Virus record (IMG/VR): IMGVR_UViG_3300037558_002946
DNA from: a virus
DNA: 25,013 nt
Direction: 5' to 3' (one strand)
The position numbers and the translations under genes were made by a program. Below, piece after piece: positions 4,308 through 24,840 of the stretch; the first letter of the stretch is position 1, and the number at the start of each line of letters is the position of its first letter. Under the pieces are notes generated by a model, which worked only from the letters and a program-made list of their open reading frames with translations, ran no database searches and was not told where the DNA came from.

Positions 4308-5669
4308 TTAGAACACCCCCTCAAAACTAACCTCATCTGAATTCCCGCCAACCTTAACCTTCGGAGGCGCTGACTTCGCTTTGAGTACCTTGGTCTCGAG
4401 GATCGTCAAGTAGAATTCCTTGAGATCAGTAACATCCTTTGATTTGAGTTCTTCTTCGTTGATTTCGTCAGTCAAAGCCTTGATCTTCTCAATCAATTCA
4501 GCTTTTTCACGTTCAATGTATTGCTTGACCTCGTTTGCCAATTTCTCGTTTTCTTCTTTGAGTTTAGCGTTTTCAGCTGTGAGTTCACTGTTCTTTGTCT
4601 CGAGTTCTTTGACTTTCTCCGATAATTCGCTGATTGTCGCTTCGAGTTCCTTAACCCTTTTCTCTACTTCTTCCATGTTTTCTTGGCGTGAATTTAGACT
4701 TTTTAAAGCAGAGTGGTCAGTTGCTTCCTCTTCAAGTTTGAGCGCCTTAAGAAGTACCTCTTCGTCGATCTGAAGAGTCTTCAGTACAACACCAACATCA
4801 AGAAGCGATCTATATTCTGGTGGCTCCCTTCCAAAATCGTTTTTGTAGTGGGCCGATAGGTGAGCATATATTTTGCGCTTGTCCTCCTCTGGCAATTTTG
4901 CAACAGATAGTCTGACAAAGCCAGCGATTACTCCTCTCAAGTTGACAGCGTGCGGTTTTGGATGTTTGGTCGGGTTGTGGTGTGGGAACTTCAAGTCTGT
5001 ATAGCGGTCTGGTGGATTCTTGGGAGCCCAAGCAAAGTGGGCTGCGATGAATTGTTGCTCGTCCTCGCTCAATGATTCCCAAGGCTCATCAGTAAAATCA
5101 CTCAAATTCGGTTTCCTCCAAGGCGATTCTTCATCCTTGCCATACTTGAATGTGTGGCGAGGAGATATGCCTTTAATAACCAAGTTCTTCTCGTAAACAT
5201 CTTCGACAACAGCTTCAGGGTTTGAAGGGATGCCGACAAGTGATACTTCGAGTATTTGCAATTTCTTTATCTTATTGCCCTTTCTCTCGAGTACCTTGAA
5301 GCCTATGCTGAACGCATCGAGGAATCCATTTTTAAGAGATTCGTAAATTAGCTCGAAGTATGGATGTGCCTTGTTGAGCATTACCTTTATCCAGAGCTTC
5401 AATATTCCTCTGTCTTCTTTTACAGCTGCATCCACAACTTTTCCGATTGGTATCTCATCCTCGATGTCAAAGTCTCTCTTTATTAGGGGCGCATGCCCGA
5501 TGAAAACCTTGTTGTAAGGCGGATTCACGATGTCTCTTGCCGCTTCCTGTAAGGCTTCTTCGGTTATTATTTCGTCGTGGAGGTCCTCAACAGTGGCAGA
5601 AGCGTATCCTTCAACATATACGTTTTTCTCGTCCTCTTTGGTTTTGAGAGATCTGACTACCAATTGCAT
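4308..5669 (-). CDS. Prohead protease (HK97-type) fused to an inserted domain and a C-terminal coiled-coil scaffold
   Basis: VEGYAS...D-x-H-D-E-I-I, GH, AFSIGF (catalytic Ser region), LEVSLVGIPSNPEA; long heptad C-terminus. Confidence 0.88.
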   Translation of the reverse strand: MQLVVRSLKTKEDEKNVYVEGYASATVEDLHDEIITEEALQEAARDIVNPPYNKVFIGHAPLIKRDFDIEDEIPIGKVVDAAVKEDRGILKLWIKVMLNKAHPYFELIYESLKNGFLDAFSIGFKVLERKGNKIKKLQILEVSLVGIPSNPEAVVEDVYEKNLVIKGISPRHTFKYGKDEESPWRKPNLSDFTDEPWESLSEDEQQFIAAHFAWAPKNPPDRYTDLKFPHHNPTKHPKPHAVNLRGVIAGFVRLSVAKLPEEDKRKIYAHLSAHYKNDFGREPPEYRSLLDVGVVLKTLQIDEEVLLKALKLEEEATDHSALKSLNSRQENMEEVEKRVKELEATISELSEKVKELETKNSELTAENAKLKEENEKLANEVKQYIEREKAELIEKIKALTDEINEEELKSKDVTDLKEFYLTILETKVLKAKSAPPKVKVGGNSDEVSFEGVF

Positions 5670-5688: not shown

Positions 5689-5699
5689 GACTTTTAAAA
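5689..5699 (-). promoter_or_regulatory. Late-type TATA element TTTTAAAAGTC, 19 nt upstream of the protease ATG
   Basis: Shared motif and spacing with the other three late units. Confidence 0.7.
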
Positions 5700-5709
5700 T
5701 GCTGATAAG

Positions 5710-6039
5710 CTAATACACCAAAGTTACACCATCTTCCGAATCGGGCATTCTTGGAGGCTTAACTTCTGGCAAGTTATCCTTAACGATCCATTCTCCCGAA
5801 TCAGCCAATTTATTCGCTGCATACCTCCATAAATATAGGTCTCTTTCCGATTTTATGAGCCACGCGAGAAATGTCGGTCTGGAGTTCATCTCCTGTCGAA
5901 TTCTCTCCAGAGCTCTTTTCCCGAGAGTACCGAATGACTTTGCTGTGACCTCGATTGGATTATGAGGGTCGCTGCCCATACCAATTATCTCTACTTTATC
6001 TGGCAATTCTTTGTGTTTGACTACTATCTTCCATTCCAT
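5710..6039 (-). CDS. Hypothetical protein, candidate immunity protein for the MuF toxin domain
   Basis: 109 aa, immediately downstream of MuF-HExxH, with its own AT-rich TATA-like element. Confidence 0.55.
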   Translation of the reverse strand: MEWKIVVKHKELPDKVEIIGMGSDPHNPIEVTAKSFGTLGKRALERIRQEMNSRPTFLAWLIKSERDLYLWRYAANKLADSGEWIVKDNLPEVKPPRMPDSEDGVTLVY

Positions 6040-6063
6040 TCTACCACTATTTCCTTATTAATA

Positions 6064-7557
6064 TTATATAAAATCTCCCCTCAACACGGAAAGCAAAAAC
6101 GCGAAGACTTCTCTGTCAGCCTCGTACAACTTCTTCATCGATTCCTCCGTGGCGAAATGCTCTAAACCGACACTCACGAACTCTGTCATTATGTCCCCCT
6201 TCAGATCTTCGATGACTTCGGGATTCTCCTTGATTCTCATCAAGTTTCTTACAGAATCCTTAGCCAACTTTGATGGATAAAATCTTCCCATGTACGGACT
6301 TATGTGCTCGAAGCCTTCGAAAATGTAAACATCATATCCAACGAACTCGTAGTTCTTGAATTCGTTCAGTCGCCTCAACTTGTAGCCTCTCTTCCTAATT
6401 CTCGCGAGATAAAACTCTTTCACGACATCTTCAGCGCCATAGTGCTCCAAGTGGTGGCCATATTCATGGAGAAAATCACGCCACTCGTTTTCACTTCCAA
6501 CCCCTCTTATCAGCGTAATTCTCTTCTTCCACCAATTGTAATGTGGATTTCCAGACTTCTGATAATTAATTTGCACATTTCCCGCTTTCTCTATCAACCT
6601 TCTGTTGACCTTTGTGGGTAACAATAATTGTATTCTCTCCCTCAAATCCTTACTGGCTCCTTTCATGTAGCTTTTGTAAATTTCCTTTCCTATTCTCTCA
6701 GACTCAATCACGCTCAATGGTCTACCATTTACAACACGATTAACAGCTTTCGTAAAGCTACCCTCTTCCTTCAACGCTTTTTCGAAATCGTCCAAAGCCT
6801 TTCCAATTTTCTCGTCGATCTCAGGAATTCCAACCCCAAATTCTTCTTTTCGCTCTTCTTCACTTTCTTTATCGAAGTAAGGCAATGTCGTGCACCGGCA
6901 ATTCGGATGCGCTGGTGGGGTAGGGTCCCCGATGTTGAATATCTTATCATGTTTCGCTCCACAAATCGGACAAGTGCGCTCGTCAGCAGCTGCGTACCAC
7001 TTCCACTTCTTCAAGCCAGCTTTCTGATAGCGGTCAATTGCTGCGGCATTAAAAACTCTCGTGGATTCCGTTCTTGCAATACGCTCTGCTTTCCATTTTG
7101 TATCGTTTATTACCTCTTTAACCCGCTTAGTTAACTCCGATATCGATTCTCCTCTAATTATCCCTTCTCTCAACTGGAAAGCTAAAGCCTTCTTCGTCTC
7201 CTCGCTCAAGCCCTTGATCAGATCGAGCTGCAAGTTCTCGAGCTGGAGCAAAGTTTCGTTGTCGAGAATGCCAAGATGTGGCGGTATTTCTATCGTGATG
7301 CCATAGCGCTTCAGCTGTCTGTTTGCGAAATCAGCTCCGCGCTGCCAGAATTGCTGAGTATAGTAAGCAACAACTTCTTCAGCCTTATCGCCAGCGAGGT
7401 GCTTCGATACGATTTGCTTTATCTCCCCGATTGTCGCCTCGTTAATCGCATCTGTAGTACCGAGAACTTCCAGGATTTCTCGCTTTGCCGATTCTGAAAG
7501 CTTTCTCAGCGCTTTAACATACTCTTTTCTGAGGAGCTTTGTCTTCGTTGGATCCAT
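6064..7557 (-). CDS. Head morphogenesis protein (SPP1 gp7/MuF) with C-terminal zinc-metallopeptidase (HExxH) toxin-like extension
   Basis: MuF core RIARTE...W-x-W-x-A-A-x-D-E-R-T-C-P-I-C...PPAHPNCRC. The C-terminal ~250 aa contain FLHEYGHHLE, PYMGRFY and TEFVSVGLEHF. Start re-assigned to ATG 7557. Confidence 0.85.
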   Translation of the reverse strand: MDPTKTKLLRKEYVKALRKLSESAKREILEVLGTTDAINEATIGEIKQIVSKHLAGDKAEEVVAYYTQQFWQRGADFANRQLKRYGITIEIPPHLGILDNETLLQLENLQLDLIKGLSEETKKALAFQLREGIIRGESISELTKRVKEVINDTKWKAERIARTESTRVFNAAAIDRYQKAGLKKWKWYAAADERTCPICGAKHDKIFNIGDPTPPAHPNCRCTTLPYFDKESEEERKEEFGVGIPEIDEKIGKALDDFEKALKEEGSFTKAVNRVVNGRPLSVIESERIGKEIYKSYMKGASKDLRERIQLLLPTKVNRRLIEKAGNVQINYQKSGNPHYNWWKKRITLIRGVGSENEWRDFLHEYGHHLEHYGAEDVVKEFYLARIRKRGYKLRRLNEFKNYEFVGYDVYIFEGFEHISPYMGRFYPSKLAKDSVRNLMRIKENPEVIEDLKGDIMTEFVSVGLEHFATEESMKKLYEADREVFAFLLSVLRGDFI

Positions 7558-7558
7558 G

Positions 7559-8779
7559 TTACTCTTCCTCTTTTGGTGGTTCTGGTGGCAGATCGATCCA
7601 TTCTCTTGCTTCTCCAAGCGTTACAACGCCAGCTTGATACAGCTTGACCGCCTGATCGACCCAATCGCTGTAGTCCTCCCTGAGCGGATTGTTGAACTTG
7701 AACCTGACATCTGCATCAGTGATGCGTGGAATCAGCTTTCTGTTGATTTCAGCCTCGAATTTGCGCTGGATACTCTCGATGAACAGCATGAACGTGCGAC
7801 GTTGGTTGTATGACGTGGCTCTGTTGCTACCCTCAGCCTCCCCCAAGAAAACTTTCGGTACCTTCAGAGCTCTATCCACCTGCCGCTGCAGATGCTCGAG
7901 TATTTTCGCTATGCCTGCGAAGTCGTGAGAGGCTGATAGGTCCTTCAATTCAACAGTTTGATCAAAAACAAGATTGTTGCTCACAGTAAAAGTTCCATCA
8001 AGGTTATCTTTCACCCTATCAGCGAGCAACTCGTTCACAGCCTCAAGCTTCTCCTCAGCGTATGTTTTTCCAGTCTTAGGATTTATTGCTTCATCTTCTG
8101 GAGTTAACTCCACCTTGGCCCAAAGCAATCGGTGGGCATCACGATGGGCCATGGCTGCTGCTGTCGCTTCTATCTTATTCTTTATGCTGAGTTTATTATA
8201 GACATTGTGCAACAAGCTCAAACCATAAACATTGTCCGCAAATTGCCTAAAGCGGAAGTGAAGGACATCCTCTGGCTCGAATTTGTACTCTGGATCTCCA
8301 ATGAATGTTGCGTTGTAATCGTACCAATAAAATTGTATTCTACCATACTCGTCCGTTACGATTTTGACACGCTTTGGGTGAACAACTTGAAGAGTAAAAC
8401 CAAAATCGTTGTCCTCCTCGACAATGAAATTGTAAGCGTTTCCAAAAATCAGATGAGTTAACACATCGTTTTCCAAGATGTCCCAAAATCCGACTTCAGC
8501 TGCAAACTCCTCGCACCTCTCAACAGCTTTCGGCTCGCCGATGAACTGAAAGCCAGCTCCAACAACCAAGTATGTGATGGTCTCAAGGTGGGCTTGAGCG
8601 TCTTCGCTTATATTGTAAAGCCATTCGTATTCGTCGTAGTTAACACGAGGGTCGAATCCAGGTGAACTTTCCAATGGTTTGGCTACAAGAATTGCCTTGT
8701 CGGACTTGTACTTGAACTCCCTTCTTCTTTGTGTCTTGGGCATGTCATTCGAGAACCTACGGATGATTCTGTTCAGCAT
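7559..8779 (-). CDS. Portal protein
   Basis: 406 aa between terminase and MuF; motifs LIFGNAY, VLHFRF...VYGLSLL, LKVPKVFLG...NRAT. Confidence 0.88.
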   Translation of the reverse strand: MLNRIIRRFSNDMPKTQRRREFKYKSDKAILVAKPLESSPGFDPRVNYDEYEWLYNISEDAQAHLETITYLVVGAGFQFIGEPKAVERCEEFAAEVGFWDILENDVLTHLIFGNAYNFIVEEDNDFGFTLQVVHPKRVKIVTDEYGRIQFYWYDYNATFIGDPEYKFEPEDVLHFRFRQFADNVYGLSLLHNVYNKLSIKNKIEATAAAMAHRDAHRLLWAKVELTPEDEAINPKTGKTYAEEKLEAVNELLADRVKDNLDGTFTVSNNLVFDQTVELKDLSASHDFAGIAKILEHLQRQVDRALKVPKVFLGEAEGSNRATSYNQRRTFMLFIESIQRKFEAEINRKLIPRITDADVRFKFNNPLREDYSDWVDQAVKLYQAGVVTLGEAREWIDLPPEPPKEEE

Positions 8780-8798: not shown

Positions 8799-8809
8799 GA
8801 CTTTAAATA
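8799..8809 (-). promoter_or_regulatory. Late-type TATA element TATTTAAAGTC, 19 nt upstream of the portal ATG
   Basis: Shared motif and spacing with the other three late units. Confidence 0.7.
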
Positions 8810-10606: not shown

Positions 10607-10616
10607 GACTTTAAAA
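10607..10616 (-). promoter_or_regulatory. Late-type TATA element TTTTAAAGTC, 20 nt upstream of the terS ATG
   Basis: Shared motif and near-identical spacing with the other three late units. Confidence 0.7.
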
Positions 10617-14809: not shown

Positions 14810-16338
14810 GGCTCTCCCTTGATCATCCTCTCGATATTGTCGAGACGTACCATCAGCGTGGCGATTGCGTTAATCAATTGGATCATTCTATCCTGCTTCG
14901 AAGCTCTCTCGACCCTCTCAAGGAAAAGTCTTTCGAGGCGCTCTATTCTCTTTTCTATGCTCGAAAACATGGACTTCATTATGTCTTCGAAGTTTTGCTG
15001 CGACATGCCACCAGCAATACAAGCCTCTATAGCATCTATGCGTTGTTGGATTTGCTGGATTTGTGGCTTAAGTTGAATTGCTGCTTCCAACCCTTCTCTT
15101 ACCAAATCGATCTCCTCTGGATTGTCGGACTCTATGTGGCCTTCACCATGACTGGCATCAATCCATAGTCTTTCATTCAAGCGAATCGGAGATGTTTCAA
15201 CAATACCTCCATTTTGCATCAATGTTTTAGTTCGACTTTCGTTGCGCAATTTCTTCATGATGTTTTGGATGAGTTTTGACTTCAAAGCCCATTCTGGCTT
15301 GCTCAATAGGTAAGGCTTGTCGAGCTCTATTTCGACACCCTTAGCATATTGCTCTCGAAGCCATATTTGAACAGCCCTATCCAACATCCGTATAACTTCA
15401 GCTGCTGCTTCCTCCGCAGATTTATCGATAAATTCAACATCTTCAGCAAGTTCTGCTACGACTTTGTACTTTAACGCCCGGATCCGGACAACTATGCTGT
15501 TGACAGTGATCAAGTATACGTGGCCAGTCCAACCCTTTGGTGTGTACGATTTGAGGTACGACTGACATTCGGTTGAGAAGGGTTGATTTTGGTTGACAAT
15601 GTGATAAGCCAATTGCAAGCGGTGCACATTGATCGGGAGCTTTTGCGGGGAGCTAACATCCCTGTTGTTGCGTGGTTGACAATTGGGTTTGCTGTGTGCC
15701 TTTATGAATGCGATGATAGCTTTCTTAACGACATATAACTTGTCCCTCTTTTTTCCGAAGCCCCAATGAGACCCTTTCTCTGCGATGAATCCCCATTTTA
15801 TGAATTTCTTAACCCACTTGTGTACCGCTTGCCTCGATATTCTGAGTTTTCTGGCAATCTGGCTTTGAGTTAAGCCTTCGTATAACAATTTCAGAATTTG
15901 CTTAGCTCTCTCACATAAGTTCTCGAGTATGCCTATATCCCTAAGGTCCAAGGGTTTGTCAACCACCCATGTTGGAGGTTTGTCAACCACATTGTCAACA
16001 TGTGTTCTTGGTCTCGTGTCCTTACTTTTTGTGATTGCTCGGCCATTCTTTGAGATACGATATGATAACCCATGATGTGATTGCTCTGTTTCAAAAATGG
16101 AGGATGGAGATTGCTTTGATTCGTTGAGTTTTGTCAACCCATCATCATGAGATTGACTATCAATCTCGCTGTCAACCAAGACTATGTATGTCTCGCTGCC
16201 AACATACCTCCTCTCGACTGGCAGCGATAAGAGATGCCACTCGATGGATGGTACAGGATAACCAGTAAGCTCGGCCAATTCCTTTAAAGTGCGAGGTTTC
16301 TCCTGGAGAATAGTTATTATGCGGTCTCTGATGCTCAT
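14806..16338 (-). CDS. Multi-wHTH protein, putative replication initiator
   Basis: N-terminal wHTH (PRTLKELAELTG), low-complexity linker, second HTH (GLTQSQIARKLRISRQAVHKWVKK), alpha/beta domain and C-terminal coiled coil. The gene contains iteron-like repeats. Confidence 0.55.
   Translation of the reverse strand: MSIRDRIITILQEKPRTLKELAELTGYPVPSIEWHLLSLPVERRYVGSETYIVLVDSEIDSQSHDDGLTKLNESKQSPSSIFETEQSHHGLSYRISKNGRAITKSKDTRPRTHVDNVVDKPPTWVVDKPLDLRDIGILENLCERAKQILKLLYEGLTQSQIARKLRISRQAVHKWVKKFIKWGFIAEKGSHWGFGKKRDKLYVVKKAIIAFIKAHSKPNCQPRNNRDVSSPQKLPINVHRLQLAYHIVNQNQPFSTECQSYLKSYTPKGWTGHVYLITVNSIVVRIRALKYKVVAELAEDVEFIDKSAEEAAAEVIRMLDRAVQIWLREQYAKGVEIELDKPYLLSKPEWALKSKLIQNIMKKLRNESRTKTLMQNGGIVETSPIRLNERLWIDASHGEGHIESDNPEEIDLVREGLEAAIQLKPQIQQIQQRIDAIEACIAGGMSQQNFEDIMKSMFSSIEKRIERLERLFLERVERASKQDRMIQLINAIATLMVRLDNIERMIKGEP
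15499..16178. repeat. Dispersed iteron-like repeats, consensus TTGTCAACCA(C), 8 copies in two opposing orientations
   Basis: Direct copies: 15956-15966, 15980-15990, 15992-15999, 16131-16139, 16170-16178. Inverted copies: 15499-15505, 15590-15599, 15672-15682. Confidence 0.8.
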
Positions 16339-16341
16339 AGC

Positions 16342-17367
16342 TTACGTGCCATCGTACATGTTGCCGATGAGCTCCCTCTCTTGCTTCAATTTCATCTTTA
16401 TGTCCTCAGAGAGCGAGAACGACTGTTTGATGAGCTTGAGTTTTCTCCCCTCTTTCACGAGTTCCGCATCGAAATCGACATAATTGGCGAAGATTGGCAT
16501 TAGAAACGATGATGCCACTTTCCTGTCAATGTTGAGTTCAAGTTTTTCAGCAACTCTTGCTATGTCCTCAGCATAAGCTTCCTCTGGTAAACTCTCGAAG
16601 AGCTCTTTTATTTTATCGTAATCGTAAACTCTGGACCACAACCTTCTGCCATCTTTATTTGTCACTCGGATGATCAACTTGCCATCGTGGATAGCGTATT
16701 GGAAGTAGCGATGGGAAATCCAAATAACACTCTCTTCGTCATACGCTGGCTTCCTCCCACGCCTCTTCGGTTTTACTGGCTCTCTTGGTTCTCGGAAATT
16801 GATTAGTTCGGTACCCTTGACAAGGATCATTTCCGAGCCTCTCTTGTGGGCCTTCACAAGCTTGGCTTCGAAGTCGTTGTGAGCCGAGAATATGTGCATC
16901 AAGTACCTCGCAGTAGCATCAGAAATCTTGAGTTCCATCTCCCTTGCTTGCTTCAATACATCTTTAACAGTGGACCGTGCTGGAAGAGCATCGAACAATT
17001 CCTTGACTTTTGAGAATATTAGCCTCCGCTTGAAGCCTGGAGGATCGGCCCTATGCTTGAAGTATATCAGATCGTTCTTTTCGTCAATGAAGTAGTAAAT
17101 GCTTCCAACTTCTCGCCATCCTGGTTCGCTTAATTCTTTGTCAGGCTCATCCAGCATCCTTTCTATGGCAAAAATGAAATAGGCCGCACCATCGACCAAA
17201 TCGTCGAGTAATTTTTCCTTGCAACCAGTCTGGAGCATTGTTGAGGATCTGTAAGACTTTACTCGGGCCATCGCTATGAGATCTTCGAGTGGCAATTGCT
17301 TCCAAGTTTGCTTGTATAGAGAGTCGCGCTCGTTTATCTTGTCGAGAATTAACTCAATTGCCCTCAT
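16342..17367 (-). CDS. Nmad1/DUF1599-like all-alpha NTP-pyrophosphatase-type domain fused to two tandem ~95-aa repeats
   Basis: N-terminus Y-x-x-x-W...L...K-x-x-R...D-D-L-V-D-x-x-x-Y; duplicated KxKELFxxLP...LMxIF...DFxAxLVK; start re-assigned to ATG 17367 (GGAGGT RBS). Confidence 0.6.
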   Translation of the reverse strand: MRAIELILDKINERDSLYKQTWKQLPLEDLIAMARVKSYRSSTMLQTGCKEKLLDDLVDGAAYFIFAIERMLDEPDKELSEPGWREVGSIYYFIDEKNDLIYFKHRADPPGFKRRLIFSKVKELFDALPARSTVKDVLKQAREMELKISDATARYLMHIFSAHNDFEAKLVKAHKRGSEMILVKGTELINFREPREPVKPKRRGRKPAYDEESVIWISHRYFQYAIHDGKLIIRVTNKDGRRLWSRVYDYDKIKELFESLPEEAYAEDIARVAEKLELNIDRKVASSFLMPIFANYVDFDAELVKEGRKLKLIKQSFSLSEDIKMKLKQERELIGNMYDGT

Positions 17368-24767: not shown

Positions 24768-24840
24768 AGCCGCCGGCGGGATTTGAACCCGCGACCTGGT
24801 GATTACAAGTCACCCGCTCTGCCAGCTGAGCCACGGCGGC
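24768..24840 (-). tRNA. tRNA-Thr (anticodon UGU), intronless, CCA not encoded; probable integration target
   Basis: GCCGCCG/CGGCGGC acceptor stem, D-arm TGGCTCAGCTGGCAGAGC, anticodon arm GGTGA-CTTGTAA-TCACC, T-arm GCGGG-TTCAAAT-CCCGC, discriminator T. Confidence 0.97.

Follow-up and report, generated by a model that had tools for sequence, protein, structure and literature searches.

Our comparative analysis of a viral head module revealed a MuF protein whose C-terminal domain, here termed X, has a predicted zincin-like metallopeptidase fold, a small gene, Y, immediately downstream, and related proviruses in which both are replaced by an unrelated domain and an unrelated small gene. We propose that X is a capsid-borne peptidase effector and Y its cognate neutralising protein, the two forming an exchangeable MuF cassette in a provirus of an Archaeoglobaceae archaeon, and we give this explanation, the best of those considered, a probability of about 0.55. 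It is favoured by the combination of a delivery domain that stays constant, a predicted C-terminal enzyme that is exchangeable, a small partner exchanged together with it, and orphan partner genes; judged on sequences, this comparative pattern is what defines a polymorphic toxin/immunity system. The label toxin is applied to X by analogy with the characterised Apk2 and Bxa (PMC11699363). We infer peptidase activity and toxicity of X, its binding by Y, and its packaging and delivery, as laid out in the following model. The MuF core would anchor the fusion inside the capsid by docking at the portal; X would exit with the DNA and, once in the infected cell, cleave a target protein. Y, which is probably co-transcribed and has a Shine-Dalgarno-like leader, would bind and block X in the producing cell, and would also protect lysogens and cells with stand-alone Y genes.

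All head-module genes of the window, the 25,013-nucleotide stretch of DNA to which the positions given here refer, lie on the minus strand in the order terminase, portal, MuF-X, Y, protease and capsid. The open reading frame list and Pfam identify the terminase large subunit (10138-8810), the S78 prohead protease/scaffold (5669-4308) and the major capsid protein (4307-3408). The portal gene (7559..8779; PF04860, E 1.2e-28) abuts the 497-aa MuF-X gene (6064..7557) translationally (TAAcATG), the ATG of the latter lying one base past the portal stop, and the 109-aa Y gene (5710..6039), encoding the candidate immunity or inhibitor protein, starts 24 nt past the MuF-X stop. In most relatives a Shine-Dalgarno-like GGTG precedes the start codon of Y by a few nucleotides. 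The window contains four copies of the promoter-like motif TTTAAA(A)GTC, where 0.61 would be expected, on the minus strand at 1212-1220, 5689-5698, 8799-8807 and 10607-10615, and the copies at 5689 and 8799 are located about 20 nt upstream of a late-gene start codon. The first of these two in the direction of transcription, TTTAAAGTC (8799..8807), lies ahead of the portal gene at the presumed start of a portal/MuF-X/Y unit, and the second, TTTAAAAGTC (5689..5698), lies just after Y and ahead of the protease gene at the presumed start of the next unit. Given these putative promoters ahead of the portal and protease genes, portal, MuF-X and Y probably constitute one late transcription unit. A TATA-like box upstream of the window's Y was considered as a promoter of its own and rejected, since it coincides with the region of the MuF stop, where conserved coding of ...GDFI-stop accounts for it. 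In the protease gene (4308-5669, minus strand), S78 occupies aa 9-156 and is fused to an extended C-terminal part, of which the final ~130 residues form a coiled coil, presumably the scaffold; the protease part is far better conserved than the scaffold part (93% vs 79% identity to L134, 65% vs 54% to L006).

The window corresponds to G000:C48:21863-46875, part of a contig in a 2.27-Mb, 99.9%-complete cellular assembly. Its relatives are found in Archaeoglobales/Archaeoglobaceae genomes, one close homologue being annotated from Archaeoglobus profundus, and because of this affiliation the description of the window as a provirus of an Archaeoglobaceae archaeon is sound at the level of sequence comparison; the initial annotation had likewise seen an archaeal virus. 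A temperate lifestyle is plausible given the cellular contig and a tRNA-Thr in the window (24768-24840); the 363-aa ORF adjacent to this tRNA has no Pfam integrase match. The same head module is also present on metagenome contigs of about 43 kb, and 22 metagenome contigs encode, in this head module, a protein identical to MuF-X. A further, truncated copy of MuF, a lone 133-aa ORF (Pfam MuF, E 6.6e-11; L002:1459-1857 (+), corresponding to G000:C48 about 16264-16662), lies roughly 5 kb outside the low end of the window on the opposite strand, beside a tape-measure-like gene (PhageMin_Tail); both genes possibly belong to the same provirus.

The initial annotation had let the MuF domain end at HPNCRC and continue into an extension of about 250 residues, and profile searches bear this out. 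The Phage_Mu_F / SPP1 gp7 domain (aa ~128-224, 6886..7176; PF04233, E 9.6e-24; TIGR01641, E 1.3e-28) ends in CPIC...HPNCRC, with HPNCRC at aa 217-222 (6892-6909), and is followed by an acidic linker (aa ~225-244, 6826..6885) and by X (aa 245-497, 6067..6825). Three motifs are located in X where the annotation had placed them: HEYGH (H364, E365, H368; 6454..6468), the HExxH metal-binding/catalytic motif, which continues as HExxHHxE; PYMGRFY (aa 421-427, 6277..6297); and TEFVSVGLE (aa 458-466, 6160-6186). X itself has no match in Pfam, NCBIfam or PDB sequences. A PDB profile search with X returned nothing below E 0.05 and neither lethal factor (LF) nor PPEP among its matches; the only weak hints from sequence searches, each covering the HExxH region, were FtsH (E 0.24) and oligopeptidase A (E 0.7). 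When 1.84 billion representative proteins were searched exhaustively, 25 relatives emerged. Across the 26-member alignment H364, E365, H368, Y422, Y427, E459, G464, D481 and F485 (window numbering) are invariant and H369 and E371 nearly so; in a second set of 60 viral proteins the two histidines and the glutamate of HExxH, one tyrosine and the glutamate at E459 are again invariant. Because the H/E/H residues and this glutamate are invariant in both sets, the aligned sequences indicate conservation of the X motifs beyond chance. The proposal that TEFVSVGLE supplies the third zinc ligand stands in part: the conserved candidate is E459, the glutamate of TE (6181..6183), and the last glutamate of GLE is a glutamine in several relatives.

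An AlphaFold2 model of X, computed with the 26-member alignment (pLDDT 97.2, pTM 0.93), shows a three-stranded sheet (strands 89-111) followed by the HExxH helix 116-135 bearing H125, E126 and H129 (model numbering), which is the zincin arrangement. E459 immediately precedes helix 221-230, and its invariance together with this place before a later helix makes it the candidate third zinc ligand; Y422 and Y427 are candidates for the transition-state tyrosine by analogy with M34 peptidases. Foldseek by itself returned matches at E > 0.1 only, yet with ArdC, PPEP and LF on top, ArdC being the top, weak match. X is similar in overall structure to solved zincins, and the fold search places it among zincin metallopeptidases with PPEP and lethal factor closest, in line with the MuF-metallopeptidase reading first made from the letters. 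On the predicted structure, we class X as a presumably active zincin-like metallopeptidase domain whose catalytic residues are intact.

Is the small downstream gene part of the same system? The initial annotation had called it an orphan ORF, which it is not: Y homologues (31-48% identity) lie 3' of X in every archaeal relative examined, so that each X-bearing archaeal MuF gene inspected is followed by one, and a further homologue follows a MuF-ADP-ribosyltransferase-X protein (hhalign 97%, E 3e-11). The AlphaFold2 model of Y (pLDDT 86) has a beta-beta-beta-alpha-alpha-beta order and a disordered tail, with no informative fold match and no recognisable family. Beyond the archaeal relatives, an ORF of 79-132 aa starting -45 to +60 nt from the stop of the X gene accompanies 61/66 non-redundant viral X genes vs 28/74 control genes from the same loci, both samples being drawn from loci that are not phylogenetically independent; these small ORFs often share 4 or 8 nt with the X gene. 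Iterated HMM searches started from archaeal Y stopped short of the small ORFs that follow distant X domains, and the best profile-profile link of Y, to the largest distal small-ORF cluster, has an hhalign probability of 48% (E 1.8e-4). The small ORFs behind distant X domains are diverse, with only part of them linkable to Y, and because of this 48% link we do not claim a single family. Tails of 130-180 aa that follow internal X domains in some viral proteins gave no match to Y profiles. Small ORFs are common in phage head modules, as the 38% of control genes attest, and one may regard the downstream ORF as an unrelated small head gene and X as a catalytically dead structural extension of MuF. 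We consider this very improbable, as the metal-binding and catalytic residues are invariant over >80 divergent sequences and Y co-varies with X, not with the flanking genes.

X forms the very C-terminal end of MuF proteins, some of them with long linkers, of the MuF-ADP-ribosyltransferase-X protein P0010, and of proteins without MuF. A tblastn search of 50,697 phage records with the window's X had no hits; starting from a distant family member instead retrieved 92 cultured-phage records, including Xanthomonas phage Rb1, cyanophage PaV-LD (ORF080R/081R), 157-kb Vibrio phages, Flavobacterium phage pippi8-1, Bacillus phage vB_BboS-125 (gp68), S. pyogenes phage 315.3 (SpyM3_1120, whose annotated best non-GAS match is ORF28 of the lactococcal phage r1t) and four Lactococcus phage records. 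X relatives are encoded on 222 IMG/VR contigs, and among 60 viral X proteins Pfam recognised MuF in 21, a portal fusion in two, ddrB-ParB in one and ART in one. The annotations of other phages, such as that of PaV-LD ORF081R as a 'virion structural protein', suggest by analogy a virion location for MuF-X. Several side observations concern these loci. X occurs in tandem (L067, L045, L016 (P0017), L019), a 1099-aa protein having three copies and a 613-aa protein two; a degenerate copy lacking HExxH is also present in P0017, and in PaV-LD the domain is found in two adjacent paralogous genes, ORF080R and ORF081R. The contig encoding MuF-ART-X also bears, just upstream of the portal gene, a DGR-like pair of bAvd and an RVT_1 reverse transcriptase (L011:1547-3176). 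A large ORF upstream of the portal gene on a MuF-X phage contig (L016:1-2447) contains LAGLIDADG_3, which may be an intein or a homing endonuclease within a packaging gene.

The hosts of these viruses comprise archaea, Firmicutes, cyanobacteria and Proteobacteria, and a spread over such different hosts is easier to explain by a viral or universal substrate than by a host-specific one. The main rival to our proposal builds on this. X may be a self-processing or maturation peptidase of capsid-internal proteins that cleaves, ahead of ejection or following it, the MuF fusion or other internal proteins, with Y as a regulator or substrate and no toxin involved. The spread over unrelated hosts suggests a viral substrate, X is C-terminal in multi-domain head-associated proteins (MuF-ART-X, portal fusions, ddrB-ParB, tandem X), and autoproteolysis has been proposed for such domains by Iyer et al. 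(PMC5512222). The protein of the window, however, has no other cargo to release, and for this and the reasons given below we regard such a role as possible, though not probable. Another virion-borne function, digestion of the host envelope, for instance of S-layer protein, at infection, has a precedent in the large internal protein of phi24B, whose virion-borne metallopeptidase domain was proposed to serve envelope penetration (preprint 10.64898/2026.04.10.717836). We think it highly unlikely for X: the same domain is present in viruses of hosts with unrelated envelopes, extracellular action needs no cognate intracellular partner, and the slot of X alternatively holds an unrelated domain of ~160 aa with a partner of its own.

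This alternative occupant came to light when only the MuF core (aa 1-240) served as query. The nearest cores, with 53-67% identity, reside in proteins of ~390-408 aa without X, including the A. profundus protein, whereas in X-bearing relatives core identity is only 50-55%. The closest cores bear an unrelated C-terminus of ~160 aa, termed Z, followed by an unrelated 84-98-aa gene; hhalign probabilities of 0.1% for Z against X and 0.4% for the Z partner against Y mark both as unrelated. Among 96 Archaeoglobi genomes, five encode MuF-X and six the shorter MuF form. The Z cassette was observed at L128, L129, L131, L132 and L133 (Archaeoglobi genomes G028, G044, G017, G047 and G060); the ~160-aa Z domain comes in two subtypes (ending ..THWKI.. 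or ..TVHKINKRKF..) with an overlapping 84-98-aa ORF, and neither of the two parts has a Pfam or PDB sequence match. The expectation that relatives would combine the same MuF core with swapped C-termini and swapped downstream ORFs is thereby borne out, with X and Y replaced by Z and its partner.

Three comparisons define the unit of exchange. L128 is 81% identical to the window in portal, 67% in MuF core and 89% in capsid protein, and X and Y are absent; in their place are the unrelated C-terminus and an unrelated, overlapping 84-aa ORF. L134 is 91% identical in MuF core, 93% in protease and 95% in capsid protein vs 49% in X and 39% in Y. Conversely, the IMG/VR contig L026 and L126, the G038 provirus, share 92% identity in X, 93% in Y, 94% in portal and 98% in protease (N-terminal domain), and 41% in MuF core. 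The identities of X and Y run in concordance across pairs (94/96, 92/93, 77/70). At the acidic linker, identity to L134 falls from 91% (core) to 49% (X), and L026 vs L126 shows the reverse discordance. From these identity breakpoints, we read X and Y as moving as a single cassette whose recombination junction with the MuF core is the acidic linker after HPNCRC. The MuF core is also an exchangeable module, given its 41% identity between L126 and L026 despite near-identical portal, protease, X and Y. The polymorphic-toxin reading holds up in these comparisons, since X varies or is replaced among relatives and is far from an invariant domain.

The same data bear on self-processing. Judged by L128, whose head module carries another cassette, X and Y are dispensable for building this head type, and the virus has its own S78 prohead protease besides X. 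A maturation peptidase is disfavoured by near-identical head modules that function with an unrelated cassette where X-Y would be.

Y genes also exist apart from X. A Y-profile search of the Archaeoglobi class found Y beside X in 5/5 X-bearing genomes and, in addition, two intact copies elsewhere. One (G038, C1:1777060-1777362) lies 122 kb from the G038 provirus and is 80% identical to that provirus's Y; the other (G042, C66:3752-4060) is at most 42% identical to any Y allele, in a genome (92% complete) in which the X profile finds no X. Within about 6 kb of both orphan genes there are no X, MuF or head genes, the neighbours being cellular-looking ORFs, and a TATA-like box precedes each. Stand-alone Y genes in host chromosomal contexts are expected of immunity genes and agree with the initial annotation of Y as a candidate immunity gene; polymorphic toxin systems are known to include orphan immunity genes (PMC11699363, discussion). 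There are two such copies only, and they could be provirus remnants.

The orphan genes count against a role of Y as chaperone or substrate, neither of which would predict them, and the self-processing model leaves those in cellular contexts without a role. It is conceivable that Y is a dedicated chaperone or packaging adaptor that folds X or loads it into the procapsid, rather than an inhibitor or immunity protein; its tight, often overlapping translational coupling to X, its co-inheritance with X and its probable expression with the late portal-MuF unit would all suit such a function. Stand-alone Y genes with TATA-like boxes of their own, in host contexts without X, fit this poorly, and in characterised MuF systems the ORFs of this type encode immunity proteins (PMC11699363). 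We consider a chaperone or adaptor unlikely, somewhat more so than the self-processing peptidase, and retain neutralisation of X as the preferred function of Y.

What would the relevance of such a cassette be? X with a coupled partner ORF recurs as a pair in >200 viral contigs and in studied phages (315.3, lactococcal phages, PaV-LD, vB_BboS-125), and the locus described here offers a directly testable candidate protease/inhibitor pair from a thermophile. If Y is a true inhibitor, it would represent a new class of zincin inhibitor, and if the orphan Y genes truly protect cells, they would constitute a defence gene of viral origin.

The fold of X invites comparison with two groups of peptidases. 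Its resemblance to M34 (anthrax lethal factor, PPEP-1/2/3) is structural only, with 12-15% identity in structural alignments, and at the sequence level neither Pfam nor the PDB profile search places X in this family. The spacing from HExxH to the glutamate is 91 residues in X and about 40-45 in M34. Phage and plasmid polyvalent proteins contain zincin peptidases as a hub domain, and Iyer et al. proposed those of the larger proteins as self-processing, autoproteolytic peptidases (PMC5512222). X shares with these zincin-like MPTase domains, a group that also includes its top Foldseek match ArdC, the HExxH motif and, in E459, a candidate for their glutamate on a later helix, the two separated by a variable insert, as well as fusion to MuF, ART, portal and ddrB-ParB in head-associated proteins. 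Unlike them, no member of the X family matches MPTase-PolyVal (PF18818) at E <= 1e-3, including the 60 viral members, and the window's X has no match at E <= 10; a text search of PMC5512222 found no description of a conserved, coupled small downstream ORF.

The closest parallel is provided by the MuF polymorphic toxins described for bacterial temperate phages (PMC3482391, PMC5576092); in the case of Apk2 and Bxa, a small immunity protein encoded alongside neutralises the toxin (PMC11699363). Apk2 and Bxa are also the only enzymatic types characterised, with no metallopeptidase among them. As a kind, MuF polymorphic toxins are not new, and Euryarchaeota already appear, in a table only, among the taxa that Zhang et al. 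give for MuF-linked toxins (PMC3482391). A supplementary table of Jamet et al. appears to list the phage 315.3 MuF with a C-terminal extension, its domain given as 'unknown' (PMC5576092), and a halovirus paper mentions a 'long' MuF. New are the documented cassette exchange in Archaeoglobaceae proviruses, the orphan Y genes, and X as a previously unannotated domain coupled to a partner. The bacterial systems and the window have in common an N-terminal MuF domain encoded beside the portal and a variable C-terminal domain, enzymatic or predicted to be so, followed by a small cognate ORF; C-terminus and ORF are exchanged together on related MuF cores. They differ in that the host of the window's virus is an Archaeoglobaceae archaeon and the C-terminal domain belongs to an unannotated zincin family, with toxicity assigned by analogy. 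MuF-anchored toxins have so far been established only in bacterial prophages; the constant capsid anchor, exchangeable effector, cognate small partner and orphan partner genes in hosts seen at this locus suggest that the same logic operates in proviruses of hyperthermophilic archaea.
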